A stretch of DNA of 64,000 bases from Agarilytica sp. (GCA_033852165.1 JAWSUZ010000004.1:4692-68691); one strand, 5' to 3'. Shown: positions 2,880 through 49,319, counted from the stretch's first letter. The notes: generated by a model not told the origin, from the letters alone. Numbers and translations: made by a program.

Positions 2880-3032
2880 ATTTAACAAGCCTCAAAGGAG
2901 AATAAAATGATTGCATGGGTAAAAGGTCAAACGCCCTCCCAGCGTATTATTTTTATTAATTATTTTTGGTGCGACAAAATGTGATTTGATATGCATAAAT
3001 CTACATAACGCTATTTAGATTAGTAGAGGATT

Positions 3033-30656: not shown

Positions 30657-30991
30657 TCTTAATCTATTTGAGTGTGAGTAGCTATTCGTCTATTCCCTTC
30701 TCTGTCCAAAAAATAGCGTTACCTAGGTATGTTTAAAGGTCCGTGGCTTTGTCTGTAATCTTCAACTATCTTCATTTGTCCGCGTTATGATCAGAGTCGT
30801 TTAGGTTTTTCGGCGTACTCTTGATCTTCGTAATACCAAAAGTGTTTGCTTTGCTGCTATAGGGCGGAGTTTTGTTCGGGTTGCTCTAATAGGCAGGGAA
30901 GGAGCTTTGGTAGCTGCTGTCCAAGAAGGTAAAGGGCGAACTGGTCGTTGGGTTATGGGATTCGTATGGATAGAGGGTTTTACGCGCGAAT

Positions 30992-31016
30992 AAAAAGGGC
31001 GCCAATAGGCGCCCTT
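30992..31016 (-). terminator. Intrinsic terminator of the TonB-dependent receptor gene
   Basis: Minus strand AAGGGCGCC-TATT-GGCGCCCTTTTT. Confidence 0.75.
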
Positions 31017-31040
31017 AACAACTCTTACTTAGTTTGAGTA

Positions 31041-33407
31041 TTAATACTCATAGCCTAGAGTTAGAGTGATAGTGCGAGGATCGCCGTAGTAGCCGAGGAT
31101 TGCATCTTCGCCCGCTGTAGCTGGGAAGTTGTATCCGCCTGTACGATACTCTTCGTCAGCAAGGTTTTTGCCGCTAAGAATAGCTGTCCAGCTCTCTTCT
31201 GGAGATTTCCAAACTACGCTAGCATCGATTAGGTCATAGCTTTCCTGATCGATGATAGATTCAGTAGCTTCAAACATGCGAACATCATCACGGAATGAGT
31301 ATGCAATATTGAATTGCAAGCTGCCAGAGCTGCCAATATCGAGATTGTAAGAAGTTGCGAGTTGGAAGTTCATGTCGGGAGCGTTCTGCATGCCCCATGC
31401 TTCATAAAAAACACCATTCACAGTATTGTCGTTTGCTCGGTTTATGACGGTTAGTACTGGGTCGCCATCTCCGTTAACTGCACCGGTGGGAACTGTTTCG
31501 TCAACTGTGTCGAACTCGGCATCTAGCAGGCCTAGAGCCATGTTGATTGTCCAACTTTCAGTCGCTTGGAATGTAGCTTCAAGTTCAAGACCTTGGATTG
31601 TTGCTTCACCAGCGTTCACTACTGTCGACGAGAAGAATGATGGAGCGGGAGCCGGTGATTGAACAGTAACTTGCATGTCCGTGTAATCGGTATAGAAGAG
31701 TCCCAAGTTCAAGCGTAAGCGATTATCAAAGAGTTGAGTTTTTAGGCCTGTTTCATAAGTGACTACAGTTTCTGGGTCGAAACCTTCGACTGCATTTGGC
31801 TCAACAACTGCATCGGTACGCATATCAAATCCGCCAGACTTAAAGCCCTCAGAGTAAGATACGTATACTAAAGTCTCATCATTCAACTTGTAATCAAGTT
31901 TAATGGTGGGAGAAAACTCATTCCATGAATCATTCATGTCATTTTTATCAAAGTCTGTACGTGTAGCTACAAGCGTATCGTACTGGGCTAAGCCATGTGT
32001 TAAAGCTGAACCTTGGCTAGTTGTGCCTGGTATGGAGTTAGCTGTAACAATAAAGAATCGTTGAGCGAGTGCAGATTTTTCATCTCTTGTGTAGCGACCG
32101 CCGGCAGTTAGGGTTAATGAATCTGTGAAACTCCAGTTAACATTAACGTAAGCCCCGGTACTTTCGGTGTCAACTTCGCCGTTAACGCCGTTGCTGAATG
32201 CGCTGCCATCAAGAATTGCTCCTGAGAAATGACCAAATAGGGCATCAAATGCGCCAGTTGCAGTGCCGTCGTAGTAGAATAGGCCACCAACGATAGCAAG
32301 GCTATCCATTGTGTAGTTAATCTGTACTTCAGCTGTAGTTTGCTCGTCATTGTAAAATGCAGGAATGTCAAAAGAATCTAGTGGGGTACCGTCGAAGTCG
32401 ATAAACGTTTTAGTTGAGCCTGAGCGGTTAGCCAACACAAACTTTGATGAAAGTTCGTCGGTAATATCATATTGAACAGTTAAAGATACGCCTCGAGACA
32501 GAACTTCTTGCTCTTCAGTCATTCCACACTCTGAATCATAAACAGATTCGCGAGGTCCAAAAAATTCACCGTTAGGTCCGGCAACAGTGTTGTCCGCGAA
32601 ACGCGAACCACAACGGCTGTTTGAAGTATCTTCAAGAGCGTCAGCGGCTACGCGAATAAATAAAGAGTCGGTCGGAGAGTATTCAACAGAAGCTCGTGCC
32701 GCTTTAACGTCTTTATTGTAGTTTTCTTCTGTACGGTTGAAAGTTTGGTCAGCAGGGTCGTAGTCTTTATATTGAGTGCCGAAGCCGTCTCTTTTCAAGA
32801 TGCCAACTGCAAAGCCAAAATACAGCTCATCTTCGATAAGAGGTATTTGGTTAGCGACTTTAATGTCGTTTTGACCTGCAGTACCAACAGCAACTTTAAC
32901 GCTACCGCTGTGCTCGCCAGTCATTTTCTTAGTGATGTACTTAATCGCGCCACCAATGGTGTTTTTACCGTAAAGAGTACCTTGTGGTCCACGAAGGATT
33001 TCTAAACGCTCTAGATCCATAAGATCCATAACCGCGCCTTGAGGGCGAGCGATGTAAACGTCATCCAGATAAACACCGACGCCTGGCTCGAAACCCCAAA
33101 GAGGATCTTGTTGGCCGATACCACGGATGAACGCAGTAAGAGTAGAGTTAGTACCACGGCTAGCGCGCAATTGTGCGTTAGGAGTACTTTTTTCGATATC
33201 GATGATAGTTGATGCGCCAGCAGCTTCTAATTGAGCTGGAGAGAACGCAGTAATAGCAATAGGAACTTCTTGTAGGTTTTGCTCACGCTTCTGAGCAGTA
33301 ACAATAACTTCTTCTAGCTGAGGAGCTGCGAAAGTTGGTACCGAGATCGGTAACGCAATCGCCACTGCAACCGCAAGCGGATTTAAAAGTAATTTAGTTT
33401 TTTTCAT
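31041..33407 (-). CDS. TonB-dependent receptor
   Basis: Signal peptide, LEEVIVTAQKRE, plug motifs FIRGIGQ and LEILRGPQGTLYGKN, C-terminal LGYEY. Confidence 0.95.
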   Translation of the reverse strand: MKKTKLLLNPLAVAVAIALPISVPTFAAPQLEEVIVTAQKREQNLQEVPIAITAFSPAQLEAAGASTIIDIEKSTPNAQLRASRGTNSTLTAFIRGIGQQDPLWGFEPGVGVYLDDVYIARPQGAVMDLMDLERLEILRGPQGTLYGKNTIGGAIKYITKKMTGEHSGSVKVAVGTAGQNDIKVANQIPLIEDELYFGFAVGILKRDGFGTQYKDYDPADQTFNRTEENYNKDVKAARASVEYSPTDSLFIRVAADALEDTSNSRCGSRFADNTVAGPNGEFFGPRESVYDSECGMTEEQEVLSRGVSLTVQYDITDELSSKFVLANRSGSTKTFIDFDGTPLDSFDIPAFYNDEQTTAEVQINYTMDSLAIVGGLFYYDGTATGAFDALFGHFSGAILDGSAFSNGVNGEVDTESTGAYVNVNWSFTDSLTLTAGGRYTRDEKSALAQRFFIVTANSIPGTTSQGSALTHGLAQYDTLVATRTDFDKNDMNDSWNEFSPTIKLDYKLNDETLVYVSYSEGFKSGGFDMRTDAVVEPNAVEGFDPETVVTYETGLKTQLFDNRLRLNLGLFYTDYTDMQVTVQSPAPAPSFFSSTVVNAGEATIQGLELEATFQATESWTINMALGLLDAEFDTVDETVPTGAVNGDGDPVLTVINRANDNTVNGVFYEAWGMQNAPDMNFQLATSYNLDIGSSGSLQFNIAYSFRDDVRMFEATESIIDQESYDLIDASVVWKSPEESWTAILSGKNLADEEYRTGGYNFPATAGEDAILGYYGDPRTITLTLGYEY

Positions 33408-33715
33408 GATGCACACCTGTGTGGTTATCTATTAGTTGATGTTTTATTTTTTTGATGATGTGTTTATCCGGAGCATTCTAATGCTATTCCACTTCTTGCA
33501 GCAAGCTTAAATATCGTGTCTTTTTTAATTTACTGTTTACTAATAAATGATGCTCACGACGCACCTGCAGCAAATCTGATCATTAATTAACCTTATTTTT
33601 AATTTTCTACTGTTTTCTAAAATTCACTTCACTCAAGGTTGTAGCGGAACTACACTCATCACTCGTTAACACTATCTTTAACAATAAAAGTAAATAGATT
33701 TTTAAAAGGCCAATT

Positions 33716-35026
33716 ATGATTAGTGTGTTGGGATTAATAACGGCGCTTGTGTTGCTCGTAATTTTAACGATCCGCGGAATGAATTTGATGATTGCGGCGC
33801 CATTCTGTGCGATTCTTGTTGCATTGACCGGGGGTTTGCCAATTATTCCTGATGTTACGCAGACTCAAAGCTTTATTACTGTGTATATGGATGGCTTTGC
33901 TGGGTTCCTTGGCGCATGGTTCTTTATGTTCTTGCTGGGTTCTTTGTTCGGTAAGTTTATGGAAGAATCGGGCGCTGCCGATAAAATCGCGTTAACAATT
34001 GTTGATTGCCTGGGAATGAAAAACGCCGTTGCGGCAATTATTATTTCTTGCGCGATTATGACTTATGGCGGTGTTAGCTTATTTGTTGTGGCGTTTTCCG
34101 TTTACCCAATGGCTGTCAGCTTATTTAAAAAGGCGGACTTACCACGCCGGTTTATTCCTGCTGCGATGGCTTTTGGTTCTGTAACTTTTACGATGACTTC
34201 AGCGGGATCGCCAGAAATTCAAAACTGGATTCCGATTAAGTATCTGGGTACTACCCCGTATGCGGCATGGGAAGTTAGCTTGTTTGTCGCGATCTGTATG
34301 GCGTCTTTTGGCTTTTGGTGGCTAAGTCGTATGGTTAAAAGTGCTCTTGCTAAGGGGGAGACGTTTTCTGCGAGAAAGGATGACCCAGAGCCAAAGGACT
34401 TGGATTCCCTTCCTCCTTTTTGGGCTTCTATTGTTCCGATCATCACGGTATTGATTATCACGTTTATCTTTCATGAGGAATACGCGCAATATTCGCTGGT
34501 TATGTCTTTGGCCTCCGGCTGCCTGGCGGCTTGGTTTGTGACCCATCGCAGTATGGAGGGCTTGGATCGGGTTGTGGCACAGGGCACAACTGGAGCCGTT
34601 ATTGCGATTGCGAATACTTCGGCGGTTGTTGGTTTTGGGTCGGTAGCGAAAGTCTCACCGGCATTTGATATAGCGGTTGATGCTATTACTAGCTTGCCGG
34701 GCAACGAGCTGATTGGTGCGGCGATTGCGGTAACGTCTATTGCTGCTATGACGGGGTCAGCATCCGGTGGTCAGAGTATTGCGTTACCGGTATTGGCGCC
34801 ACACTATTTAGACGCCGGTGTTGATCCGGAGGCATTGCACCGAGTTGTGGCGATATCGTCCGGGGCTTTGGATAGTTTGCCTCATAACGGCTATGTGGTG
34901 ACTACAATTCGAGCAATTTGTCATGAGACACACAAGGCTGCATATGGCCCCATGGCCGCATTGACGGTGGTTATTCCTATGATGGGAACCATTTTAGCTC
35001 TTGCCTGCTTCATTCTATTTGACTAA
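33716..35026 (+). CDS. GntP-family permease, probable D-3-hydroxybutyrate permease
   Basis: LLGSLFGKFMEESGAA, LTYGGVSLFVV, AGSPEIQN, GSASGG, DSLPHNG; context. Confidence 0.88.
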   Translation: MISVLGLITALVLLVILTIRGMNLMIAAPFCAILVALTGGLPIIPDVTQTQSFITVYMDGFAGFLGAWFFMFLLGSLFGKFMEESGAADKIALTIVDCLGMKNAVAAIIISCAIMTYGGVSLFVVAFSVYPMAVSLFKKADLPRRFIPAAMAFGSVTFTMTSAGSPEIQNWIPIKYLGTTPYAAWEVSLFVAICMASFGFWWLSRMVKSALAKGETFSARKDDPEPKDLDSLPPFWASIVPIITVLIITFIFHEEYAQYSLVMSLASGCLAAWFVTHRSMEGLDRVVAQGTTGAVIAIANTSAVVGFGSVAKVSPAFDIAVDAITSLPGNELIGAAIAVTSIAAMTGSASGGQSIALPVLAPHYLDAGVDPEALHRVVAISSGALDSLPHNGYVVTTIRAICHETHKAAYGPMAALTVVIPMMGTILALACFILFD

Positions 35027-35240
35027 TTAGTTCCGTCACTAAGTGGACGGCCAATGCGAGCGCATTGAAAGCGCTATCTATGCACCGCTGGATATTGTTG
35101 CTTGGAATGACTAACGTGGTCATAACTGGCGGTGCAAATCCATTATGTTCAATCAGCTCTTGCTATACCCTTGTGGTATCGGCGGGTACCAGCTAACTGT
35201 ACATGAGAGTTTTGTTCGGTTAAGGTTTTCGGTAACTACG

Positions 35241-35279
35241 AAGCCGGTATTCAATTGCTTTGAATGCTGGCTTTTTTTT
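35241..35279 (+). terminator. Strong intrinsic terminator
   Basis: 14-bp stem AAGCCGGTATTCAA / TTGAATGCTGGCTT followed by a T run. Confidence 0.8.
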
Positions 35280-35363
35280 GTGCGCTAGAATTAAAGAAAT
35301 ACCGTTCCATGCGAGCAGGGCTTTAATTTTTCGTAGAGAGCTGTAATACGGAGTAACTAGTTT

Positions 35364-37412
35364 ATGGTGCTAAATAGTAAGGGCTATAGGCTGTCGTTAT
35401 TCGTCCTGTTTTCCGCGGTGATTTTTACGTCATGTGCTGTCTCACCTGTGAAGTCTAGCAACGGGCAAGCTCAACACCGTACGGCCTTTATGTTGGGGGG
35501 CGTCTCAAAGCTCTACTATGATGGAGAGTTTAATGACCTAGCCTATGGTGGCTTGGGTCTTGATGCTATTCGTAATGGTGAGGCGCCTGTTGTTTCCGAC
35601 CCGCTACGTCCTTCGATCTCTGATTTACGCCGTTTGGCGATCTATCACAATATTCGTTCATTGTCTGCGATGTCGGATAATGCCGGTTATGGCTCTCTTT
35701 ACGCCAATTTTGATCTAGCTGCTAGCCCGGTTAGCGGTTACGAATTTATTGCTCCTTTACTCTTTGATGATGGCCAAGTTGCCTCTGTTTTCATGCTTCA
35801 GGTACCCGATAATTTTGATTGGGACCATCCTTGCCTTATTTCGGCGGCGTCCTCCGCATCACGAGGAATATACGGAGCTATAGGGGTTGTAGGGCTTTGG
35901 GGCTTGGATAAAGGCTGTGCGGTGGTGCATTCTGACAAGGGCACTGGTACAGGGTTTTACTGGTTAAGTGATGATCAAACAGTTGATGTAAGTGGGCAGA
36001 TTAATAAGCCCAATGAAAATTCTCATTTTATTGTCGATAATGTCAAACAGTTTGCTCAGGCTTACCCAAACAGGGTCGCAACAAAGCATGCGCATAGCCA
36101 AAGAAATGTGGGGCGACACTGGGGAGGGGCAGTTCTATCGTCAATAGAGTACGCATTCGAGTTGCTCAATTCTGAATTTGGCGGACAGAAAAGGTTAACG
36201 CCGGAAAATACATTGGTGATTGGGGCGGGGATCTCGAACGGAGGAGGGGCTGTAGTTGTTGCTGCCGAACAGGATAAATCGCAATTTTTCGACGGGATAG
36301 TTTTGGCCGCGCCGAATATTCCGGTACCGGCTGGATATGAGTATCAATATAAAAGTGGCGAAGCAAGGAGTAGACGAGCTGCTCAGGAGACTCGTTCCCA
36401 CAGGGTGACCGTACTTGTCGAAGTGGGTTTTAATCTGGCGCTTTACTTGCCTTGCGCTGCTTTGTTTAGTGGAGAGCCCACCCATCCTGAGGGTCTGAAC
36501 GCTCATTGGCAGGCATTACTTGAAACGAGATGCAATAAACTCAAAGCTGCCGGTTTATTGTCTGGAAAGTCCTTTCGGGAGCAGAGCTTTGAATCTCTCC
36601 AGGTTTTAATACGTAGGGGGTATCCTGAAAGCGCAAATACCATGGCAACAACATTTGCACGCAATTTGTTATGGAATTCTTTAATGCTGAGCTACACCAG
36701 TGATTTGGGAGGGTATGGGGTTGGCGATCATTTATGTGATTACAGCTATGCCTATGCAAACTCCGAGGGGGAGCCTATCGTCACTCCTGATGAGGTAAAG
36801 GCGCTAGTTTTTGGTCGAACCCGGGGCAGCTTGCCAGCGTTGGGTATTCAGATTATGAACGACGCCAGTGCAGATGGCCCACGTGATCTTATGCATTCAG
36901 TTGATGCGGATGGTGTATTGGATTTGGGCTTTGATAATGTCATGTGCATGGAAAAACATTTGTTCTCTAAGCGTGTGCAAGACGGGTTAACGGCCATTCA
37001 AGCCTCAGGTAATTTGCAGGGGCTTCCCGCAATTATTGTGCATGGCGAAGCCGACAATATCATTCAGGTTAGAAATACGTCGCGAGCCTATGCCGTATTA
37101 AACTCTGAAGTGGAAGATAATTCTTCTTTGGTTTATTACGAGGTTAAAAATGCGCAGCATATTGACCGGCTGATTGATTACCCTCCATATAAAACGCAAT
37201 ACATCCCCTTGCAGTTCTATTTCGAAGAAGCGCTCGACTCTATGTATGAACACCTAACCGAAGGTACAGCTATTCCCGCGAGCCGTGAAATTTTAACGGT
37301 TCCGGCTACCGAGAAGGAAGAAAAGTTGACACGTAAAAATTTACCCTCTATTACTTCTGGTAATACGAACCCTATCGAAATTAAAAGTGGAGTTTTGGTT
37401 TTTGCCAATTAA
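35364..37412 (+). CDS. D-(-)-3-hydroxybutyrate oligomer hydrolase, probable lipoprotein
   Basis: Lipobox-like FTSC; RRLAIYHN, SSASRGIYGAIG, SDKGTG, ATKHAHSQ, ISNGGG, IIVHGEAD, QHID. Confidence 0.9.
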   Translation: MVLNSKGYRLSLFVLFSAVIFTSCAVSPVKSSNGQAQHRTAFMLGGVSKLYYDGEFNDLAYGGLGLDAIRNGEAPVVSDPLRPSISDLRRLAIYHNIRSLSAMSDNAGYGSLYANFDLAASPVSGYEFIAPLLFDDGQVASVFMLQVPDNFDWDHPCLISAASSASRGIYGAIGVVGLWGLDKGCAVVHSDKGTGTGFYWLSDDQTVDVSGQINKPNENSHFIVDNVKQFAQAYPNRVATKHAHSQRNVGRHWGGAVLSSIEYAFELLNSEFGGQKRLTPENTLVIGAGISNGGGAVVVAAEQDKSQFFDGIVLAAPNIPVPAGYEYQYKSGEARSRRAAQETRSHRVTVLVEVGFNLALYLPCAALFSGEPTHPEGLNAHWQALLETRCNKLKAAGLLSGKSFREQSFESLQVLIRRGYPESANTMATTFARNLLWNSLMLSYTSDLGGYGVGDHLCDYSYAYANSEGEPIVTPDEVKALVFGRTRGSLPALGIQIMNDASADGPRDLMHSVDADGVLDLGFDNVMCMEKHLFSKRVQDGLTAIQASGNLQGLPAIIVHGEADNIIQVRNTSRAYAVLNSEVEDNSSLVYYEVKNAQHIDRLIDYPPYKTQYIPLQFYFEEALDSMYEHLTEGTAIPASREILTVPATEKEEKLTRKNLPSITSGNTNPIEIKSGVLVFAN

Positions 37413-37415
37413 CGT

Positions 37416-40400
37416 ATGCTAAGCCAAGGTTATATTGCTCTCTGGTCGATTGGGTATCTGTGTATACTTTTTGTAATTGCGTTTTGGGGGGATAGTCTTC
37501 GGGAGCAGGCGATTCGCCGGTATAAGCCTATAATTATTGGTTTGGCGGTTACCGTTTATTGCAGTGCATGGAGCTTTCATGGTGTAGCTGCTCAGGCTGT
37601 TAGTAAAGGGTGGTATTTTCCTCCTACCTTTCTGGGGGCCATTCTATTGCTAGTCTTTTTCTGTCCCTTAATAAAAAAACTAATCGCGGAGAGTAAGCGA
37701 GCGAATATCACGTCCATTGCAGATTACCTGTCAGTGAGCTACGGAGGTTCCCGTACTCTCGGTGTTTTAATTACACTGGTTTCTATAGTGGTTTTGGTTC
37801 CTTATCTTGCTTTGCAATTGAAAGCGATTACTCAGAATTATCATTTGCTGGCAAGAGCTGAATTACCGTTTGATCAAGCTTTCACAGAAACCACCCACAT
37901 GGGTACGGCTTTTGTTGTTGCTCTCTTGTTGGGGGCTTTTGCCATGATTTTTGGCTCTCGCAACCAAGACGTTAGGGAGCATCATAATGGTTTAATGTTG
38001 GCTATTGCATTTGAATCGATAGTTAAGCTGGTGGCTTTTGTTGTATTGGCCTTGTTTGTATCGATGGTTATGTATGACGGCCTGGAAGATATTTTTTTCC
38101 AGGTGGCGCAAAATGATGTTTTGATGAAAGAACTCGTTGAGAGGCGTGAAGGTGATGGCGGTTACCTCACCGCCATGATATTGGGTTGTATTGCTATGGT
38201 GTGCTTGCCCAGACAGTTTCATGTGCTGGTTGTCGAGAGTGAAAATCCAAGTGATATTAATACCGTCCGCTGGCTTTTCCCTGTGTACCTGCTCGTTTTT
38301 GGTATGTGTGTTTTACCTGTAGCGTATGCGGGCATGCTGCTTTTTCATGACTTGGGAATTAGTTCTGACCAATATGTTTTAGGGATTCCACTAATTGCTG
38401 GCCGAGTTGACTTGGCTCTTCTAACCTATTTGGGTGGTTTTTCAGCGGCCAGTAGCATGGTGATTTTAGCTTGCGTTGCGATGTCGACAATGGCGTCTAA
38501 TGAGCTGGTTATCCCTTTTTTATCTCGCTTCAATTTAATTGATTTACAGAATAAAAATAGAGCGCATCGCACAATTAGAACGGTTCGTCGTTACGTTATT
38601 TTCACCTTGCTTTTGTTAGCGTATGGGTATTATCGATTACTTGGTAATCAGGCAAGTTTAGGTGCTATTGGCTTTTTGTCATTTTCTTTGGCCGCTCAAT
38701 TTTTCCCATGTTTGTTTTTCAGCTTGATATTAAAGTCAGATCGAAGGAGTGAATTGGCCGTTTCTGCAATTGTTGGTATTGCCGTGGGGTTAGGGGTTTG
38801 GTGTTACACCTTATTTCTTCCCGCGTTAGTGGATGCTGGGTTTCTTTCTCAGCAGTTTTTAGATGAAGGACCGTTTGGGGTTTCATGGTTGAGACCAACG
38901 GCGTTATTTGGCTTTGAGATTTTTAGTGATTTATCACATGGTGTGTTCTGGAGTTTATGGGCGAATGTAGTCAGTTTTATTTGCTTGTCGAAAAGTCCCT
39001 TAGCCTACTTTCGGGATGCGACGTTTAGCGAGGGGCGTGCAGCCACAATGCTTGAGTTAAAGTTATTATTGACGCGCTTTTTAGGCGTTGACCAGACTGA
39101 GTTAGCGTTGAAGGAATACCCTAAGTTGGCGGCTGCGCGCGGCTACGCAGATAGCGGCGATGTCAGCGTGGTCGAAAATATTCTTTCCGCTGTGGTGGGT
39201 TCAATATCAGCGCGAAATATTATTGAAACATCTTTTACGGGTGAAGCTGAAAATGAAAAGTTGCTGGATAAGGCCGCGCAAATATTTCAGTTTGGACGAG
39301 AATTGCTGCAGGAAAGTATCGATAATATTAGTCAGGGCATTAGCGTTGTTGATTCACAGTTAAAAATGGTTGCGTGGAATCGTGGTTATTTAGATATCTT
39401 TGAGTACCCGAAAGGCATGATGCACGTGGGCTGTAATGTGGCGGACTTACTTCGTTATAACGCAATATTAAATGGCCTGGAAGGGGGAGAGGTTCAGCAC
39501 TTTATTGATAAACGCTTGAAGTTAATGGCTTCAGGCAGTGCCTATATTCATATCTACACACATTACACTGGACGGGTATTGGAAATCCAAGGGGCTCCTA
39601 TGGGAGAGGGAGGTTTTGTAACAACCTTTACCGATATTAGTAACTATCAAGAAACGGTTAGCACGTTAGAGGAAACGAGGGCAACCCTAGAGTCTCGCGT
39701 GAAGGAACGGACAGAAGAACTGCAGTTAGCAAATCGAAAATTACGTGATGCAAACCATAAAAAAACACATTTTTTGGCTGCTGCTGGGCACGATTTGATT
39801 CAACCTCTAAATGCCGCAAAGTTGTTTGCCACAGCACTGACCCATAAAGTAAAGGACCCTGAAACCACAAAGCTTCTTCACAATTTAGATCACTCTCTTC
39901 ATTCTGCAGATGCGATTATTAGTGAGCTCCTAGCGATTGCGAAACTGGATTCCGGGGAAATGCAGGTCAACGCGAAAACATTTTGTATTGGGGATCTACT
40001 GCGTTCGCTGCATAAGGAATTTTCTATCATTGCGCAAAAGAAGAATATTGAACTGCGTTTTTGCTATAGCTCTTTGGCAGTGACAACGGATGAGCAGTTA
40101 TTGAAACGAATTTTGCAAAACCTTTTATCAAATGCTATTCGCTATACCAATACAGGTAAAGTGATCATTGGTTGTCGGCGGTCGAAAACCACCAGTTGCA
40201 TTGAGGTGTGGGACCAAGGAAAAGGCATTCCCGAAAAAGAGGAAGAGAATATATTCAAAGAGTTTCATCGAATAGATAAAAACGAGCAAGACGGTGGCTT
40301 AGGTCTGGGCTTAGCAACTGTGCAGCGTTTGTGTCAGTTACTCGAAGTGAAAATCAAAGTGGAGTCTAAGGTTGGCCAGGGCAGTGTGTTTCGTATCGTG

Positions 40401-40862
40401 CTGCCGCGCACAGAAAAACGATATGTGTCTGCGTTAGATGGCGATGAGCAGGCTTCTCCTCGTGAATCTGTTTTGTCGGGGATGAGGGTTCTGTGTATCG
40501 ATAATGAAAGTACTATTCTTGATGGTATGAAGGCTGTGTTGGAGACTTGGGGTTGTGTTTTTTATGGGGTGACGGAGTGGTCGGATATTTTACCGTGGGA
40601 GCCGGATGCTTTACTTGTGGATTTTCATTTAAACGACGGTATTACCGGTATTGAATTAGCTGAGCGATTTCACGCTAAATATGGGGATGTTAAGCCGATC
40701 GTGGTGATTTCTGCAGATCAGAATAATGATGTTAGAGAGCAGGCAAAGTCGCGGGCTTATTTCTTTTTAAGAAAGCCGCTCAAGGCGGCTTCTCTTTGGT
40801 CTGTGTTGGCGCGTATCAATGATATGAAAAGCCTTGAGGGAACCGTTGCTCCTCGTCAATAA
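37416..40862 (+). CDS. crbS: SLC5(SSS)-STAC-PAS-histidine kinase-receiver hybrid sensor (CrbS/MxtR type)
   Basis: VYCSAWSF, SIADYLS..YG, LPRQFHV; STAC-like LLTRFLG..SAVVGSISAR; PAS; AGHDLIQPLNAA; C-terminal receiver. Confidence 0.9.
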   Translation: MLSQGYIALWSIGYLCILFVIAFWGDSLREQAIRRYKPIIIGLAVTVYCSAWSFHGVAAQAVSKGWYFPPTFLGAILLLVFFCPLIKKLIAESKRANITSIADYLSVSYGGSRTLGVLITLVSIVVLVPYLALQLKAITQNYHLLARAELPFDQAFTETTHMGTAFVVALLLGAFAMIFGSRNQDVREHHNGLMLAIAFESIVKLVAFVVLALFVSMVMYDGLEDIFFQVAQNDVLMKELVERREGDGGYLTAMILGCIAMVCLPRQFHVLVVESENPSDINTVRWLFPVYLLVFGMCVLPVAYAGMLLFHDLGISSDQYVLGIPLIAGRVDLALLTYLGGFSAASSMVILACVAMSTMASNELVIPFLSRFNLIDLQNKNRAHRTIRTVRRYVIFTLLLLAYGYYRLLGNQASLGAIGFLSFSLAAQFFPCLFFSLILKSDRRSELAVSAIVGIAVGLGVWCYTLFLPALVDAGFLSQQFLDEGPFGVSWLRPTALFGFEIFSDLSHGVFWSLWANVVSFICLSKSPLAYFRDATFSEGRAATMLELKLLLTRFLGVDQTELALKEYPKLAAARGYADSGDVSVVENILSAVVGSISARNIIETSFTGEAENEKLLDKAAQIFQFGRELLQESIDNISQGISVVDSQLKMVAWNRGYLDIFEYPKGMMHVGCNVADLLRYNAILNGLEGGEVQHFIDKRLKLMASGSAYIHIYTHYTGRVLEIQGAPMGEGGFVTTFTDISNYQETVSTLEETRATLESRVKERTEELQLANRKLRDANHKKTHFLAAAGHDLIQPLNAAKLFATALTHKVKDPETTKLLHNLDHSLHSADAIISELLAIAKLDSGEMQVNAKTFCIGDLLRSLHKEFSIIAQKKNIELRFCYSSLAVTTDEQLLKRILQNLLSNAIRYTNTGKVIIGCRRSKTTSCIEVWDQGKGIPEKEEENIFKEFHRIDKNEQDGGLGLGLATVQRLCQLLEVKIKVESKVGQGSVFRIVLPRTEKRYVSALDGDEQASPRESVLSGMRVLCIDNESTILDGMKAVLETWGCVFYGVTEWSDILPWEPDALLVDFHLNDGITGIELAERFHAKYGDVKPIVVISADQNNDVREQAKSRAYFFLRKPLKAASLWSVLARINDMKSLEGTVAPRQ

Positions 40863-40974
40863 GTGGCAAAGGTTAATTTAACTGATGCTTTTCTTCAAAA
40901 ATCCTTGGCTTTCAAAAAACTTTAGGGTGTCTTTAAAAATTGTGATTTTTTGTGAGGGCAAGGAAATACCACGC

Positions 40975-41135
40975 GGACACTAGCATGGATGCCAGTGCCA
41001 GGTCGCAGCATTAGCGCAGGAAGCGCGTAAGTAGAATAACGCAGGAGCAGTTATCGAGGAAGCCCGGTCCGAGAGTCTCAGTGTACATGGTGTACACCGG
41101 AAATCGAGTACGGAGCCGATGCCGTCATCGCTAAA
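40975..41135. repeat. REP-like hairpin cluster between the convergent kinase and regulator genes
   Basis: ACTAGCATGGATGCCAGT, AACGCAGGAGCAGTT (reverse complement of 18917-18931), GTGTACATGGTGTACAC. Confidence 0.7.
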
Positions 41136-41157
41136 AAGTATTTTTTAGAAATGCCCT

Positions 41158-41802
41158 TTAGTCGTTAGCAGGACTTTCAAATTTTTGTGAAAGTAAAATA
41201 ACTTCAGTGCGTTTTCTCAAGCCCAATTTCCGTAAAATCGCGGTTACATGGGATTTGACTGTCGTTTCAGTAATGTCGAGTTCAAAGGCAATTTGTTTGT
41301 TTAGCATGCCTTGGCTGAGCATTGAAAAAACACGAAATTGGTGCGGCGTCAGTGAGGCAACGCGACGAGCTATGTCTTTCAGTTCCTCATCTTCTTCGCT
41401 TATTGTTTTATCAAACCAGGGTTTGCCTTGAAGAAGGTCGCCAATCACTTTTTCCAGTTCGTTTGCATCTAAAGATTTAGAAAGAAAGCCGATTGCGCCG
41501 AGCTGCTCTGCATGGCTGATCACTTTTTGACTATTGTCCCCAGAAATCATTGCAACAGGGACTTCGGGAAAGTAGCCGCGCAAATTGACTAAACCGGCAA
41601 ATCCGTTGGTCCCGGGCATATGCAGGTCGAGAAGTACAAGGTCGGGATCAACATCTGACTCCAAATAGCTGTGAACTTCTTTAATGGTGTTGCATGAAAT
41701 ACATTCAACTTTTTGGGGTAAATTACTAAAATTATTAATCGTTTGTATAAGTGCGCTACGAAACAGCGGGTGATCGTCCGCGATGATAATTTTTATTGTC
41801 AT
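41158..41802 (-). CDS. LuxR/NarL-family response regulator (CrbR/ErdR type)
   Basis: IIADDHPLFRSAL, LLDLHMPG..GF, LTPHQFRV...LNKQIAFEL..TVKSHVTAILRKL. Confidence 0.9.
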   Translation of the reverse strand: MTIKIIIADDHPLFRSALIQTINNFSNLPQKVECISCNTIKEVHSYLESDVDPDLVLLDLHMPGTNGFAGLVNLRGYFPEVPVAMISGDNSQKVISHAEQLGAIGFLSKSLDANELEKVIGDLLQGKPWFDKTISEEDEELKDIARRVASLTPHQFRVFSMLSQGMLNKQIAFELDITETTVKSHVTAILRKLGLRKRTEVILLSQKFESPAND

Positions 41803-42000
41803 TAGGGCCTCAAATTAATCTACGACTCTAAAATGGTCGACGATTCATCAGGGTTGGTGTCGAAATATATTTGTCTCAAAAAATTCTGGCTTACAGTATC
41901 GAATTACTGACGCTCAGAACGCTGAGGCGTAAGAGTACAGTGTCGGGGTATAGAGGCATAAAGTACAGCGCAAAATTTTGCGTGGCAATGGCTCAATGGC

Positions 42001-42921
42001 TTATGACTGTAAGGGTGTCGGGTTTGAGGAACGGGAGGATGGCCACATTTCAAGGATGACCTCCTCAAGCGCTTTAGCCGCTACAGATAACGGATAGCGC
42101 CGCCTTGTAATAATTCCTACTTTAGGTTGAATGGCAGAGCCTTCGATTTCTCGGCATATAGCCCCCATCTCTTCCATTTGTTCTTTGCATAATGCCGGGA
42201 CAGCGCTGACGCCTAAGCCTTTTGATACCAATCTGCCGATGGTTGCCAGCTGGTTGGTTTCAAACGAGACAGATAGGGATAAGGCATGCTTTGTCAGGGT
42301 ATTTTCGAGCAGTGTTCGCATATTGGCTGGCTTTTGGAGTGTGATAAACCCGGATTCTAAAAGAAACTTCCAGCTAATAGTGGAAGGGGCAAGGTTCTCC
42401 ATGGATCGTGGTAATACGGCAATAAAGCGATCTTGAAATATTGGAGTAAAACTCAAATCCTCACTCTTTCCCGGGTCAAATATTATCCCGATTTCGACTC
42501 GGCCGGATCTGACCAGTTCGAGTACTTGTTCCGCGACGACATCTTGAACGCTGATATTCACCGATGGGTGCTGTTTTTTGTATTCTACAAATACAAGGGG
42601 TAGCTGGTTACAGGCAAAAGAAGGCATAGCAGCAATTGAAATCTTTCCCCGTCTTAGTAAAAAGTGATTGCGCACATTTTCGATAGCGGTATCCCAGTCA
42701 TTTAAGAGCCTCTTGGCGACAGGCAGAAACTCCCTACCTTCTGGCGTCAATGAGAGCGTTCGTGTTGTTCGGGTGAGTAAGGGGCCGCCTATGTCCGTCT
42801 CTAGATTTTTGATCGATATGCTCAATGCTGGTTGAGATAAATTGATCGAGCTGCACGCTTCGGCAAAGCTCTGGCTGTTGGCAATGGCTACGAAAGCCCT
42901 TATTTGCTTGATTGTGCTCAT
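42001..42921 (-). CDS. LysR-family transcriptional regulator
   Basis: N-terminal HTH SFAEA...LSQPALSISIKNLE; divergent from bdhA. Confidence 0.93.
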   Translation of the reverse strand: MSTIKQIRAFVAIANSQSFAEACSSINLSQPALSISIKNLETDIGGPLLTRTTRTLSLTPEGREFLPVAKRLLNDWDTAIENVRNHFLLRRGKISIAAMPSFACNQLPLVFVEYKKQHPSVNISVQDVVAEQVLELVRSGRVEIGIIFDPGKSEDLSFTPIFQDRFIAVLPRSMENLAPSTISWKFLLESGFITLQKPANMRTLLENTLTKHALSLSVSFETNQLATIGRLVSKGLGVSAVPALCKEQMEEMGAICREIEGSAIQPKVGIITRRRYPLSVAAKALEEVILEMWPSSRSSNPTPLQS

Positions 42922-42933
42922 AACATGACCGGG

Positions 42934-42956
42934 ATTGATAAATAATATAAATCAAT
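42934..42956. promoter_or_regulatory. LysR recognition site (T-N11-A)
   Basis: ATTGAT-AAATAATATAA-ATCAAT immediately upstream of the LysR start. Confidence 0.7.
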
Positions 42957-43320
42957 TCATCAGATAAATAAAATTGATAAATATAAGGGATTACTGCATT
43001 CTTATCAAACTCATCATAATAAGAACATTTGCGCCGCTGTCATTACCAAAATATTTGTAATGATGGGCAATCTACAAGTGGTTTGTGGGTCGTTGGTGTG
43101 GAGAGGCTAATTCTCTCTCAGCTATATACTCACTAAACTGTCTGCTAACCCAGCTATTAATGCTGTAGAGTGCGGTGCTTCAACAATTGATGGTCTGTAT
43201 TGTATTCGGATTTCTCTGCTCGCTAATCAAATCAAGTGAGAAGGGGGTATCGTCAATGATAACTAAGAGTTTGCCTCATTCGAGGCACGTTAAATACACA
43301 TTAAACTAACGGGGCTAATA

Positions 43321-44079
43321 ATGAGCAAAACCGTATTTGTGACCGGAGCAGCCAGTGGTATCGGTCAATCAATCGCTGAAAGATTTGCAAAAGAGGGCCA
43401 TAAGGTCATCGTAAGTGACTTGAACATGGTGGGAGCACAAGACGTTTGTGACAAGCTAACCGCTGAAGGTCTTGCAGCTGAGCCTTATGAATTAGATGTT
43501 AGCAATATGGAAGCAATTGCAAAAGTGGGTACGGATTACCCTAATATTGATATCTTGGTTAACAACGCCGGTATCCAATTCGTAGCGAAAATCGAAGAAT
43601 TCCCAGCAGATCGCTGGAGTTTGTTGACCAATATTCTCTTGGTTGGTCCCGCTATGCTGACGCGTGCAGTCATTCCGGGAATGAAAGAACGAAACTATGG
43701 CCGAATTATCAATATCGGCTCAGTTCACGGCTTGATCGCATCGCCGTATAAAAGCGCCTATGTTGCAGCTAAGCATGGCCTGATAGGCTTTTCTAAAGTG
43801 ATCGCTTTAGAGACCGGTGAGTTCGATATCACAATCAATACTATTTGCCCTTCTTACGTTAAAACGCCTCTTGTTGAGAAGCAAATTGCTTCAACAGCTA
43901 AAGAGCATGGTATTAGTGAAGAAGAAGTGGTGAATAACATTATGTTAGCGCCTATGCCTAAGAAGGCATTTATTTCACTGGAAGAGCTTGCTGAAACAGC
44001 ATTGTTCTTGATGTCTCCAGCGGCGAGAAATATCACTGCTCAGACAATGGTTCTTGATGGTGGCTGGGTCGCTCGCTAG
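43321..44079 (+). CDS. bdhA: D-3-hydroxybutyrate dehydrogenase
   Basis: TGAASGIG, NNAGIQFV..IEEFP, SVHGLIASPYKSAYVAAKHG, CPSYVKTPLVEKQI. Confidence 0.93.
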   Translation: MSKTVFVTGAASGIGQSIAERFAKEGHKVIVSDLNMVGAQDVCDKLTAEGLAAEPYELDVSNMEAIAKVGTDYPNIDILVNNAGIQFVAKIEEFPADRWSLLTNILLVGPAMLTRAVIPGMKERNYGRIINIGSVHGLIASPYKSAYVAAKHGLIGFSKVIALETGEFDITINTICPSYVKTPLVEKQIASTAKEHGISEEEVVNNIMLAPMPKKAFISLEELAETALFLMSPAARNITAQTMVLDGGWVAR

Positions 44080-44400: not shown

Positions 44401-44475
44401 ATACACTTCACATCCGTATCGTTCTCAAAGATTCGGCTCTTGCAATTTCCATCTCCAAACTCTCAGTGGTCTCCA

Positions 44476-46263
44476 ATGAATACAGAAGACAAGCACAAGA
44501 TTTTAGATTACGTCGATAAGTTTAGCGGCGTTTTTAACAATATGATGGAAGAAGTTACCCGGCGCTTGATGACGAATCAGTCGGATTCTAACTTTGAGAG
44601 CGTAATTAAAGTCCCAGATGTTAACTCTCAAGAGAAAGCTTCTAGTGTTAAAATTGACCCCAAGCGCTTTGTGAGCCAGCAGTTAAAATTTCTGGAAAAA
44701 CAAAAACAACTTTTGGAAAATGCCTCGAAGGTCTTTTTGGGGGAAGAGTTTGTTCCCGTTATTAAGTCAACCAAGGGCGATAAGCGATTTAGTGATGACG
44801 ACTGGACGGGTAACCCAGCATTTAACTATATCAAGCAAGCGTATTTACTCAATGCTGAATACATGAACCAGTTTGTCGATGCGCTTGAATTTGAAGATAA
44901 GAGTATTGAAGATCAGGTGCGCTTTTATACGCGGCAGTTTATTAATTCGATGTCTCCCACCAATTATGTTCTAACTAACCCTGAGGTTTGCAGAGAAATC
45001 CTTGCTACAGATGGGCAAAACCTGGTCAAAGGTATCGATAACTTCATGCGGGATCTAAAAGATAGCCCAAAGGAAGTGTTTAGGGTGACCCAGGTCAATA
45101 AAGATGCTTTTGAACTCGGGAAGGATTTAGCTTATACCCCTGGAAAGGTGATTTTTGAGAACGAATTGATTCAATTGATTCAATACACGCCAACGACAGA
45201 ATCTGTGTACGAAATACCGTTATTGCTCATTCCCCCCTTTATCAATAAGTACTACGTCCTGGATCTTGATCAAAAGAAATCCATGGTTGCCTGGTTAGTG
45301 GGGCAGGGTTTTACCGTTTTCATAGTTTCATGGATTAACCCGGACGACTCCTTTAGGGACTTTCCATTCGATGATTATATTAATAAGGGTGTAATTACAG
45401 CGCTAGATGTTGTTGAGCATATCAGTGGGCCAGAGGTTAATCTTGTTGGCTACTGTGTCGGCGGCACGCTTTTGGGGATTACCCAGTCTTACCTGACCAC
45501 TCAGGATGATACGCGTATAAAGTCCTTAACCTTTTTGGCGACTCTTTTTGACTTCTCTGAGCCAGGCGAAGTGGGTACTTACCTTACGAACCAGCTTATC
45601 CCAATGCTGGAAAAGTCCGTGACTGAAAAAGGTCTCCTTGACGGGCGAATACTCGGGCTTGGTTTTAGCTTACTACGGGAAAACAATCTGTTTTGGTCCT
45701 TCTTCATTGAAAACTATTTGAAAGGGAAGGATCCCGTCCCTTTCGATATCCTTTACTGGAACAGTGATTCGACGAATCTGCCGGCAGAGGCTTTTCTGTT
45801 TTACCTCAGCAATATGTACATTGGAAACAAGCTGATAGAAAAGGGTGGCGTGAGTATCAACAGCACGCCGATTGACCTTTCTACCATCAATGTGCCCAGT
45901 TATTGTCTGGCTGCGCAGGCTGACCACATCGTATTGTGGCAAGCGGCATATAAGAGCGCTAAGATCCTAGGCGGTGATGTCCGCTTTGTCTTGACCGAGT
46001 CTGGTCATGTTGCTGGGGTTGTAAATCCTGCAAGCAAAGGTAAATACGCTCACTGGGTCAGCGCTGAGATGCCTGATGATGCAGCTGGCTGGCTGGCTGG
46101 CGCAACTCAACAGGCCGGGTCTTGGTGGAATGACTGGAATGTCTGGCTAGAAGAGCGTTCAGGTAACAAGGTTAAAGCGAAAAAAATCGGTAATAAAAAA
46201 CGATATCCAGTGTTGGATTCTGCGCCTGGAAGCTATGTTAGGCGACGGCTGGATAACGATTAG
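44476..46263 (+). CDS. phaC: Class I PHA synthase
   Basis: DKRFSDDDW, TPGKVIFEN, PPFINKYYVLDL, GYCVGG, ADHIV, SGHVAG. Start taken at ATG 44476. Confidence 0.96.
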   Translation: MNTEDKHKILDYVDKFSGVFNNMMEEVTRRLMTNQSDSNFESVIKVPDVNSQEKASSVKIDPKRFVSQQLKFLEKQKQLLENASKVFLGEEFVPVIKSTKGDKRFSDDDWTGNPAFNYIKQAYLLNAEYMNQFVDALEFEDKSIEDQVRFYTRQFINSMSPTNYVLTNPEVCREILATDGQNLVKGIDNFMRDLKDSPKEVFRVTQVNKDAFELGKDLAYTPGKVIFENELIQLIQYTPTTESVYEIPLLLIPPFINKYYVLDLDQKKSMVAWLVGQGFTVFIVSWINPDDSFRDFPFDDYINKGVITALDVVEHISGPEVNLVGYCVGGTLLGITQSYLTTQDDTRIKSLTFLATLFDFSEPGEVGTYLTNQLIPMLEKSVTEKGLLDGRILGLGFSLLRENNLFWSFFIENYLKGKDPVPFDILYWNSDSTNLPAEAFLFYLSNMYIGNKLIEKGGVSINSTPIDLSTINVPSYCLAAQADHIVLWQAAYKSAKILGGDVRFVLTESGHVAGVVNPASKGKYAHWVSAEMPDDAAGWLAGATQQAGSWWNDWNVWLEERSGNKVKAKKIGNKKRYPVLDSAPGSYVRRRLDND

Positions 46264-46435: not shown

Positions 46436-46900
46436 GTGATAACGATAAAAAAATACCCCAATCGACGCCTCTACGACACCTCGCAAAGCCAATACATTAA
46501 CCTTGAGACGATACGTGCTCTTGTGATGTCTCATAATGAATTTAAGGTCATTGACTCTAAAACCGAAACGGACCTGACCAAAAGCATACTCCTACAAATT
46601 ATCAGTGAGCAAGAAAATAACGATTCTCAGTCACTGCTTACAGAATCTGTACTCAAGCAGCTCATTCGTTTTTACGGCAGTGAGATGCAGGGCTTTCTTG
46701 GTCAGTATTTAGAGCAAAGTTTGTCCACCTTTATTGATCGTCAGGATACAATGCGCGGTGTGATGCAGGATATGATGGACGCCTCCCCTATGAATGTTTT
46801 CAATCAGATGATGGAGAAGAATATGTCCGTTTGGGGTAGCTTTCCATCACCTGAAGACCAAAAAGAAAAGCCAGACGACAACTCAGAAGATCCCGAATAA
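46436..46900 (+). CDS. phaR: PHA synthesis repressor
   Basis: IKKYPNRRLYDT...LLQIISEQE...LIRFYG. Confidence 0.95.
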   Translation: MITIKKYPNRRLYDTSQSQYINLETIRALVMSHNEFKVIDSKTETDLTKSILLQIISEQENNDSQSLLTESVLKQLIRFYGSEMQGFLGQYLEQSLSTFIDRQDTMRGVMQDMMDASPMNVFNQMMEKNMSVWGSFPSPEDQKEKPDDNSEDPE

Positions 46901-47969: not shown

Positions 47970-48476
47970 ATGTACGGTAAAGTATTTGAGCAAGCCGGTT
48001 CATTTTTTAAGCCAATGGCTGAAATTATTGAGTTGAACACGGAAATTTTTGAGTCGTTGAGAACCAAACAGACTGATTTTGTGCAAGAAGTTGTTGCTGA
48101 TAGTATTGAGTATGCGAAGGGTTTTAGTCAGCCCAGCGCCGACATTGATACTTTTGTTGGTGCTCAGCAAGCGTACTGGGAAGGTATAAGGGCTAAATTA
48201 ACGTCAAATGCACAAGATAGCTTAGAGCTTATCACTGATGCGCGTGGCAAAGTGGGAGGTTTGATTAAGGGGGCATGGGACGCAAATGCTGTCGCAGTCA
48301 CTGATGTTGCCAATACAGCTGAACCTGTTGATGTTGCCAATGTAGCTGAATCTGTTGATGTTGCCAATGCAGCTGAACCCGTTAAGGCTCCGTCTAAGAA
48401 AAAGCTTACCGGGAAGAAAGCGGCTCTTAAGGCTAAAGCGGCAAAAGCAACGGCAGAGTCAGGCATCTCTGAGTAG
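47970..48476 (+). CDS. Phasin with repeat-containing, Lys/Ala-rich C-terminal tail
   Basis: Phasin-like N-terminus; 3 x DVANxAE(P/S)V; KKKLTGKKAALKAKAAK. Confidence 0.72.
   Translation: MYGKVFEQAGSFFKPMAEIIELNTEIFESLRTKQTDFVQEVVADSIEYAKGFSQPSADIDTFVGAQQAYWEGIRAKLTSNAQDSLELITDARGKVGGLIKGAWDANAVAVTDVANTAEPVDVANVAESVDVANAAEPVKAPSKKKLTGKKAALKAKAAKATAESGISE
48303..48383 (+). repeat. 27-nt coding tandem repeat x3
   Basis: GATGTTGCCAAT...GCTGAA.C.GTT at 48303, 48330 and 48357. Confidence 0.9.
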
Positions 48477-48596: not shown

Positions 48597-49319
48597 TTAA
48601 TACATATGCTGGCCACCGTTTATCGATAACGTTGAACCGGTGATAAAACCGGCATTGTCAGCCACCAGAAACTCTACACCTCTGGCTATTTCGTCAGCTT
48701 CTCCTAGTCTACCGACGGGGATTTTCGCAATTATTTTTTCGAGTACTTTTTCCGGAACTGCTCGCACCATGTCTGTAGAAATATAGCCGGGAGCAATAGC
48801 GTTTACCGTGATGTCTTTGCCTGCACCTTCTTGGGCTAAAGCCTTCGTAAAGCCGTGTATCCCCGACTTGGCTGCGGCATAGTTCACTTGCCCATACTGT
48901 CCTGCTTGGCCGTTGACTGAGCCGATATTCACAATACGTCCAAAGCCATGCTTGCGCATACTGTCTATGACATTGCGGCACATGTTAAAGCATGAGCCGA
49001 GGTTAGTGTCGAGTACGGATTGCCAGCATTCTGGGCTCATTTTGTGAATGGTGCCGTCACGCGTGATACCTGCATTGTTGATAAGAATTTCGATGCGACC
49101 GAGGTCGGCTGTAATTTGTGCTACAGCTTCAGCACAGGCGTGGAAGTTAGAGACATCGAATTTATATACAGGAATTCCGTACTTGTCTTTAAATGCGGCG
49201 GCGGTTTGATCGTCCCCTCCATAGCTTGCTGCGACTGTGTATCCATCCTCTTTAAGACGAACGGAAATGGCTTCTCCGATACCGCGGGTTCCACCAGTGA
49301 CTAGAGCGACTCTGCTCAT
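48597..49319 (-). CDS. phaB: Acetoacetyl-CoA reductase
   Basis: TGGTRGIG, NNAGITRD, GQAGQYGQVNYAAAKSG, INGGQHMY. Confidence 0.95.
   Translation of the reverse strand: MSRVALVTGGTRGIGEAISVRLKEDGYTVAASYGGDDQTAAAFKDKYGIPVYKFDVSNFHACAEAVAQITADLGRIEILINNAGITRDGTIHKMSPECWQSVLDTNLGSCFNMCRNVIDSMRKHGFGRIVNIGSVNGQAGQYGQVNYAAAKSGIHGFTKALAQEGAGKDITVNAIAPGYISTDMVRAVPEKVLEKIIAKIPVGRLGEADEIARGVEFLVADNAGFITGSTLSINGGQHMY

Follow-up and report, generated by a model that had tools for sequence, protein, structure and literature searches.

The subject of this analysis is a gene cluster of Agarilytica sp. (GCA_033852165.1, own genome, coded G000) in which a TonB-dependent outer-membrane receptor lies divergent from a GntP-family permease and is accompanied by a lipoprotein of the 3-hydroxybutyrate (3HB) oligomer hydrolase family, a hybrid sensor kinase, two regulators and the 3HB dehydrogenase BdhA. 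The stretch of DNA analysed, called the window throughout, is 64,000 nt long (JAWSUZ010000004.1:4692-68691), and its features are collected in Table 1. An open reading frame (ORF) list combined with Pfam and NCBIfam models recovers every gene that a preliminary description of this DNA had named, each where that description had placed it. Genes for the synthesis and granules of poly-3-hydroxybutyrate (PHB), namely those for PhaC, PhaR, a phasin and a short-chain dehydrogenase/reductase (SDR), lie directly downstream of bdhA and had not figured there.

Table 1. Features of the window, with positions counted from its first nucleotide
Feature	Coordinates	Strand	Basis or remark
TonB-dependent outer-membrane receptor	31041..33416	-	Pfam Plug + TonB_dep_Rec
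Divergent promoter region, receptor/permease	33417..33715	.	intergenic
GntP-family permease	33716..35026	+	PF02447; divergent from receptor
3HB-oligomer hydrolase (3HBOH), lipoprotein	35364..37412	+	PF10605
SLC5/STAC-PAS-HisKA-HATPase-REC hybrid sensor kinase	37416..40862	+	Pfam, PDB 10ED homology
LuxR/NarL-type response regulator, ErdR/CrbR-related	41158..41802	-	Response_reg + GerE (Pfam)
LysR-type regulator	42001..42921	-	HTH_1 + LysR_substrate (Pfam); divergent from bdhA
BdhA, 3-hydroxybutyrate dehydrogenase	43321..44079	+	TIGR01963
Class I PhaC	44440..46263		TIGR01838, 697 bits vs cut-off 623
PhaR	46436..46900		PHB_acc_N/PHB_acc (Pfam)
Phasin	47970..48476		Phasin_2 (Pfam)
SDR	48597..49319	-	adh_short (Pfam)
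Secreted PHB depolymerase, two catalytic domains	3..2888	-	Esterase_PHB x2 + fn3 (Pfam)

Gene families and layout of the locus

The hydrolase matches PF10605 across almost the whole profile (E 7e-149; 497.6 bits, cut-off 27; positions 8-685 of the 688 in the model). Its G-x-S-x-G motif reads GISNG (S291), and both S291 and the His/Asp columns are invariant. The lipobox claimed for it earlier is present: FTSC follows a hydrophobic N-terminus, with F rather than the canonical L at position -3. A lipobox Cys after a hydrophobic leader recurs in the hydrolases of all four relatives compared (LSGC, FTSC, LYGC and SIAC) and in most of 80 hydrolase homologues, including those of Marinobacter and Burkholderiales. 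Because residue +2 of the lipoprotein is Ala, the hydrolase is probably anchored in the outer membrane. No solved structure in the PDB matches it by sequence. The founding members of PF10605 are the extracellular 3HB-oligomer hydrolase of Ralstonia pickettii T1 and the intracellular PhaY/PhaZ2 of Ralstonia eutropha. The window hydrolase resembles these enzymes in matching the family model over its full length and in carrying the G-x-S-x-G motif of a serine hydrolase. In the literature searched, neither a lipoprotein form of 3HBOH nor a receptor partner for it turned up.

The permease scores 55.2 bits against PF02447 (cut-off 22.5), which places it in the GntP family, while the narrower model TIGR00791 reaches only 38.8 bits against a cut-off of 292.75. 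Homologues found within the same module in other genomes (see below) are 61-96% identical to it, and public sources label them just "GntP family permease". Seven paralogues of this GntP-like permease are found in the own genome by tblastn. The protein PA2004 carries the annotation "probable D-beta-hydroxybutyrate permease" (PMC3003667). BdhA passes the PHB_DH model TIGR01963 with 342.5 bits (cut-off 307.05).

In the receptor, both the plug (PF07715, 61.8 bits, cut-off 23.9, E 1e-16) and the barrel (PF00593, 146.7 bits, cut-off 27, E 2.5e-42) are recognised. The translation reads as a hydrophobic signal peptide ending in AAP and then a TonB-box-like QLEEVIVTA; an N-terminal signalling extension is absent from the window receptor. 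The true start is likely the ATG at 33407, giving a protein of 788 aa, since the database copy has that length.

The kinase is translationally close-coupled to the hydrolase and co-transcribed with it, its start lying 3 nt past the hydrolase stop codon. Strong terminators lie 3' of the receptor (31016-30995) and 3' of the permease (35240-35274), so the locus divides into the following transcription units: the receptor, the permease (monocistronic), hydrolase and kinase, regulator and LysR, and bdhA. A scan of window positions 27000-50000 with Rfam returned no RNA family.

Conservation of the module and its genomic setting

The preliminary description had made its case depend on receptor orthologues being linked to 3HB genes. 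Linkage was examined in 41 genomes, the own genome plus relatives. Five of them encode a 3HBOH, and each of these has its best receptor homologue at a distance of about 2 kb, so the case is not refuted on this point. The synteny that the description had proposed to check extends well past the genus: the order receptor (-), GntP permease (+), 3HBOH (+), kinase (+), regulator (-), which we call the module, is kept in at least 13 genomes from two proteobacterial classes. Carriers include Agarilytica, Exilibacterium, Pseudoteredinibacter and other Cellvibrionaceae, Emcibacter and Paremcibacter (Emcibacteraceae), and unclassified alphaproteobacterial metagenome-assembled genomes (MAGs). Stretches of 20 kb show the five-gene order in three genera of Cellvibrionaceae. 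A scan for 3HBOH relatives with one genome per species yields 80 loci, nine with the full five-gene order and three more, cut by a contig end, with what remains of it. Receptor homologues lead to two further cases, a locus with a 79%-identical receptor (L134) and a TARA ocean scaffold holding four of the five genes. The LysR gene is more narrowly distributed, being found only in Agarilytica loci (G001-G004 and L134) and in no other genera. In L134 (1-872), two CoA-transferase subunit genes follow LysR in place of bdhA; they would serve acetoacetate activation for the same pathway. A homologue of this CoA transferase is encoded in the own genome on contig C8, beside a BdhA-like SDR.

The hydrolases themselves tell a similar story. 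A tree of 83 sequences places the 15 module-linked hydrolases on one side of a single branch (support 98) and the other 68 on the opposite side, and the module-linked ones form one gammaproteobacterial and one alphaproteobacterial subclade. Conserved synteny together with this single branch argues that the module is a unit with one origin, common to the two classes.

About 36 loci of Marinobacter present a 3HB-oligomer locus of another kind, without a receptor. In M. salarius R9SW1 (L082 9866-19565), the lipoprotein 3HBOH is followed by a PAS-containing sigma-54 activator, the tripartite ATP-independent periplasmic (TRAP) transporter DctPQM, BdhA and an AMP-forming CoA ligase with domains as in acetyl-CoA synthetase; in almost every Marinobacter locus, bdhA is found some 5 kb downstream of the 3HBOH gene. 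They share with the module a PF10605 lipoprotein, an adjacent monomer transporter and BdhA, and they differ from it in lacking a TonB receptor, in using TRAP uptake and a sigma-54 PAS activator, in the AMP-forming ligase, and in the position of their hydrolases on the other side of the tree branch. The Marinobacter arrangement exemplifies extracytoplasmic hydrolysis with subsequent uptake of the monomer, a theme to which the Cellvibrionaceae and alphaproteobacterial module adds the TonB receptor.

The PHB depolymerase family is greatly expanded in the genome in which the window lies. This genome is 5.4 Mb long and has 34 matches to the Esterase_PHB domain, about 25 loci similar to the dual depolymerase (tblastn), and a run of six tandem two-domain depolymerase genes at C97:955-22319. 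Among the congeners sampled, which include the MAG Agarilytica sp. BHT04_PHB_gam1 and A. rhodophyticola, the count of Esterase_PHB matches is 16-37 in G001, G003, G004 and G005 and none in A. rhodophyticola (G002); most other relatives have 0-3. Agarilytica is reported to be enriched on polyhydroxyalkanoate (PHA) films on the deep-sea floor and credited with more than 10 secretable depolymerases, in a study that makes no mention of TonB receptors or oligomer hydrolases (PMC10817984). The preliminary description had called the proposed uptake "selfish", which now looks doubtful: the full module also occurs in genomes without any Esterase_PHB match, those of A. rhodophyticola (G002) and Pseudoteredinibacter (G018), so that scavenging fits better.

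The sensor kinase and a putative operator

Pfam resolves the C-terminal part of the kinase into PAS_7 (635-746), HisKA (783-847), HATPase_c (892-999) and Response_reg (1025-1129), and the first 530 residues contain about 13 hydrophobic transmembrane segments. On this N-terminal part Pfam, its SSF model included, gives no match at all, and pairwise BLASTP against an SSF symporter is uninformative. A search of the PDB finds a single entry, 10ED, with E 3.7e-45 (phmmer) and 1e-81 when a seven-sequence profile is used. The entry represents the SLC5-STAC portion of the CbrA (CbrXA) transceptor from Pseudomonas (PMC13488458), and because of this match, the only route to that link, the kinase can be placed in the SLC5/STAC family of CrbS, CbrA and RpuS. 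The studied members of the family, CrbS/MxtR, CbrA and RpuS, are associated with acetate, propionate, pyruvate or histidine (PMC5715377, PMC9100948, bioRxiv 10.64898/2026.09.07.749794). The window kinase is the sole kinase of its kind in its genome.

The response regulator adjoins the kinase in all module loci and is presumed to be its partner. Its best NCBIfam model is ErdR (NF041830), at 214.2 bits below the cut-off of 390, which makes the pair a paralogue rather than the acetate system itself or its equivalog. The pair resembles CrbS/CrbR (MxtR/ErdR), CbrA/CbrB and RpuS/RpuR in the order of the kinase domains, the SLC5-STAC N-terminus, the LuxR-type regulator and, in other module loci, a putative operator that matches GAC/TAC-N4-GTC. 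It differs from systems of the CrbS/CrbR type in that it lies within a 3HB-oligomer module instead of governing acs/actP, and in the score of its regulator.

The operator was found by counting shared k-mers in the intergenic DNA between receptor and permease in 13 module loci, which yields the palindrome TAKACCWWGGTMTA. At two mismatches or fewer, 14 copies lie in 5 kb of this intergenic DNA and 5 copies in 242 kb of flanking sequence; since these very regions were the source of the motif, the enrichment is partly circular. The palindrome is present between receptor and permease in 10 of the 12 other module loci, and alphaproteobacteria have it in common with gammaproteobacteria. Its sequence agrees with the CrbR/ErdR site known from the literature, GAC or TAC-N4-GTC (e.g. 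TACGACTAAAGTCTAAA and CTTGACCAAGGTCGATT), which has been validated by reporter mutation and electrophoretic mobility shift assay (EMSA). This sequence match to a putative operator is the strongest indication that the two-component system encoded in the module may drive both the receptor and the permease.

Boxes of the same type occur elsewhere in the window. A double palindromic box (GAC-N4-GTC with TA flanks) lies at 3033-3060, some 150 bp upstream of the dual depolymerase gene, and a perfect TAGAC-N4-GTCTA lies at 47550-47563, 420 bp upstream of the phasin. A depolymerase regulon was considered on this basis and rejected as too weak: a genome-wide scan for the box returns only the window depolymerase and the phasin, and a looser scan adds three of the tandem copies on contig C97.

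Proposed uptake of PHB hydrolysis products and its alternatives

We read the locus, with moderate confidence, as a dedicated module for the uptake and catabolism of exogenous PHB hydrolysis products. Soluble 3HB oligomers, coming from the many secreted depolymerases of the cell itself or from its neighbours, would cross the outer membrane through the TonB receptor. The lipoprotein hydrolase may then cleave them, either within the periplasm or on the inner side of the outer membrane, the permease would import the resulting 3HB, as its context suggests, and BdhA would oxidise it to acetoacetate, as expected for its family. The SLC5/STAC kinase and the ErdR-like regulator most likely sense 3HB or a related short monocarboxylate and activate the divergent promoters of receptor and permease. 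The conserved synteny, the single branch of module-linked hydrolases, the export signal, the box in the promoters of other genera, the expanded depolymerase family, the nearness of the receptor clade to polyester enzymes (see below) and the lack of any sign of iron control speak for this reading.

A number of points weigh against this reading or against that of the preliminary description. Porins are wide enough to pass di- to tetramers of 3HB, so that a TonB receptor is not strictly required. The permease is a candidate inner-membrane importer of 3HB whose specificity is assigned by annotation and context only. The dual depolymerase, which had been counted as part of the system, does not belong to the locus: it lies 28 kb away, separated from it by genes for a gcvP-type glycine cleavage P-protein, ribonucleotide reductase and arginine biosynthesis. 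Two congeners, G001 and G004, have a locus with receptor, permease, kinase, regulator, LysR, BdhA and PhaC and no 3HBOH anywhere in the genome; instead, a secreted Esterase_PHB gene is convergent with the receptor (L039 ~3190-4700, L041 ~17350-18780). The CrbR/ErdR-type box is absent from the receptor/permease promoter in the window and in the PHB-specialist congeners. A dedicated receptor subfamily was sought and rejected: the module label switches six times on the receptor tree, over two clades that also contain unlinked paralogues. Outside the genus, the closest relatives of the window receptor (55-62% identity; SAR86, Pseudohongiella and others) occupy conserved cassettes of a TetR regulator, an SSF symporter, the receptor and an alpha/beta hydrolase, without any 3HB-specific gene. 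The hydrolases of these cassettes were also tried as PHA enzymes and rejected, since they reach only 51-78 bits with their best NCBIfam model, i_nPHAscl (cut-off 300), and are generic alpha/beta hydrolases.

As regards the missing box, the blocks that are conserved in that promoter across four Agarilytica genomes include AGCATTCTAATGCT and GTAGCGGAACTAC, neither of which shows a wider regulon in the own genome. In this Agarilytica clade the operator at the promoter appears to have been replaced and a LysR regulator added.

The alternative that survives best, though we think it unlikely, is that the receptor takes up 3HB as the monomer, or else some other small hydroxy- or keto-acid, when it is present at very low levels, and that the hydrolase works on the cell surface, ahead of the receptor. 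The constant partners of the receptor are indeed an inner-membrane carboxylate permease and a kinase rather than the hydrolase, as G001 and G004 illustrate; its relatives pair with an SSF symporter; and Ala at lipoprotein position +2 is compatible with an outer-membrane and possibly surface anchoring. However, an acid of 104 Da diffuses through general porins, the Marinobacter lipoprotein goes with a periplasmic-binding-protein transporter and no receptor, which fits periplasmic hydrolysis, and the esterase beside the receptor in G001 and G004 is secreted.

Next in probability, and also improbable in our view, is the idea that the receptor clade carries a broader range of hydrophobic esters or acyl compounds (fragments of other polyesters or of lipids), 3HB being one of several uses, in which case "3HB-oligomer receptor" would be too narrow a name. 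In a tree of 33 receptor homologues, every module-linked receptor falls within one clade of 26 members (support 99), in which they are not monophyletic. The cassettes of the nearest relatives speak for the broader range. Represented by loci L130, L131, L132, L133, L035 and L038, they are a widespread four-gene set in marine gammaproteobacteria; the TetR gene, PsrA-like but below cut-off, is divergent from the SSF-receptor-hydrolase genes, and the hydrolase, of about 287 aa, has no obvious signal peptide. On the other side, the partners of the receptor in the module are specific for 3HB (3HBOH, BdhA in Agarilytica, the CoA transferase in L134), and esterases of the PHB-depolymerase family sit by the receptor in two of the cassettes, those of G014 and L136. 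The G014 esterase begins 17 nt after the receptor and passes the cut-off for short-chain-length (scl) PHA depolymerases; in one cassette, an Esterase_PHB-like gene lies immediately upstream. In six genomes, an Esterase_PHB domain is found within 5 kb of 14 out of 52 receptor homologues where 2.3 would be expected, a count to which at least five distinct locus types contribute and in which related genomes are not independent; this excess speaks for the uptake of PHB products. The combination of receptor, carboxylate transporter and esterase is thus a common theme, and the clade is not exclusively tied to PHB.

The own genome contains a second cluster with a polyester flavour, on contig C77:74855-91258 (L124 1355-17758). 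Its order is a PHB-depolymerase-type esterase, two receptors with N-terminal extensions, an extracytoplasmic function (ECF) sigma factor with a FecR anti-sigma factor, a third receptor, a carboxylesterase of the COesterase family, and a second PHB-depolymerase-type esterase. The arrangement resembles trans-envelope signalling linked to polyester hydrolases. Its receptors belong to the same clade as the module-linked ones, and the cluster counts among the points for the uptake of PHB products; its carboxylesterase, for its part, is a point in favour of a broader range of esters.

So is the behaviour of the receptor barrel, which differs between close species at a fixed locus. The DNA of the window and that of an Agarilytica MAG (L032) are colinear at 83-89% identity except at 30645-32936, a stretch that covers the receptor barrel. 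The signal peptides of the two receptors are 97% identical, the plugs 74% and the barrels 32-43%, while the adjoining proteins are 82-98% identical; the swapped segment covers approximately aa 160-791 and the promoter is retained. Three very divergent receptor alleles occupy this one slot within the genus. The barrel has thus been replaced in place between close species, the cause of which could be a change of substrate or phage pressure.

The third alternative, that the receptor is functionally unrelated to its neighbours (for example, an iron or cofactor importer that is adjacent by history) or that the locus is for internal PHB turnover near phaC and phaR, is very improbable: automatic annotation of homologues as "iron complex outermembrane receptor protein" (JGI) and, in one case, "Pesticin receptor", a best PDB match to the pesticin receptor plug, an adjoining PepSY_TM/FMN_bind pair and the PHB synthesis genes directly downstream speak for one or other version of it, but the siderophore, haem and B12 models of NCBIfam stay far under their cut-offs (TIGR01783 148.7 vs 223.5; TIGR01785 110.7 vs 316.9; TIGR01779 73 vs 600), synteny with 3HB genes spans two classes while the PepSY neighbours are kept in one close relative only, the hydrolase is exported, and the divergent promoter of other genera has a shared operator. 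The earlier statement that no Fur box is evident at the receptor promoter stands, the best match in the receptor/permease intergenic region being 11/19, which is the background level. A link to iron was accordingly rejected, with no Fur box, iron-family models below cut-off and neighbours that are not conserved with the receptor. Those neighbours are a plus-strand trio at 28046-30656 beside the receptor, encoding a porin O/P-like protein, FMN_bind and PepSY_TM, which is kept only in the closest relative and elsewhere is unlinked to the receptor.

Returning to the uptake of PHB hydrolysis products, a stronger version can be proposed more tentatively, as something possible but short of probable. 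The module might be a true polyester-utilisation system, with a TonB receptor that actively imports 3-hydroxyalkanoate oligomers, an SLC5/STAC "transceptor" kinase with 3HB as its ligand, and a barrel exchanged at a fixed slot to match polyester fragments or to escape phage. If true, this would be the first TonB receptor for a breakdown product of a bioplastic and the first such ligand assignment in the CrbS family.

The preliminary description had called the locus similar to a polysaccharide utilisation locus (PUL). In the strict SusC/SusD sense this fails: no SusD-like gene is found at the locus, where the neighbours of the receptor are GntP and PepSY_TM, and the SusC model TIGR04056 gives 36.6 bits against a cut-off of 368. 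The wider pattern of proteobacterial utilisation loci built on a TonB receptor does apply. Loci of this kind are the carbohydrate utilisation containing TonB-dependent receptor (CUT) loci of Xanthomonas, e.g. the SuxA sucrose locus. Here, as there and in the PULs of Bacteroidota, a TonB receptor is clustered with an inner-membrane transporter, an extracytoplasmic degradative enzyme and a dedicated regulator, in an order that is kept in 13 genomes from two classes. The differences are that the likely substrate is a polyester oligomer and not a carbohydrate, the locus having a 3HBOH esterase and BdhA and no glycoside hydrolase; that the SusD partner and the SusC-type receptor of the Bacteroidota loci are absent; and that the regulators of CUT loci and PULs are of the LacI, hybrid two-component system (HTCS) or ECF types, in place of which this locus has an SLC5/STAC transporter-kinase.

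The preliminary description knew of no characterised TonB receptor for 3HB oligomers, and none was found in the literature. PHB has been assigned to such a receptor by prediction once before, in the case of a TonB-dependent transporter of Alteromonas macleodii ATCC 27126, MASE_06600, whose predicted substrate is given as "polyhydroxybutyrate" on account of an adjacent PHB depolymerase and whose transcript is up under carbon, not iron, limitation (Manck et al. 2020, PMC7190382). It too is a marine gammaproteobacterial TonB transporter assigned to PHB through neighbouring genes, but the prediction consists of one entry in a table and comes without a described oligomer hydrolase, permease or sensor, whereas here the association extends across two classes and includes a putative operator. 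A 2026 paper suggests that a receptor beside a lipoprotein polyesterase may take up degradation products (PMC13533575). PegB, the TonB receptor of the sphingomonad operon for degradation of polyethylene glycol (PEG), is reviewed in PMC11644497. By description it is similar, being a TonB receptor proposed to bring soluble chains of a synthetic polymer into the periplasm for enzymatic attack; it differs in that its substrate is a polyether rather than a polyester and in its other enzymes and regulators.

PHA bioplastics are promoted for degrading in the sea, and we know of no description of how degraders retain the soluble products of their depolymerases in open water. The module offers a concrete candidate route of uptake, made up of an energised outer-membrane importer, an exported hydrolase for oligomers, a permease for the monomer and a sensor that resembles a transporter. 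To our knowledge the signals of SLC5/STAC kinases are mostly unknown, and the module puts forward 3HB as a candidate ligand for one of them. Because it also occurs in genomes free of depolymerases, the module can serve as a marker set for both PHA-degrading and PHA-scavenging potential in metagenomes. A cultured carrier is at hand in Agarilytica rhodophyticola, which combines the full module with the lack of any Esterase_PHB match.

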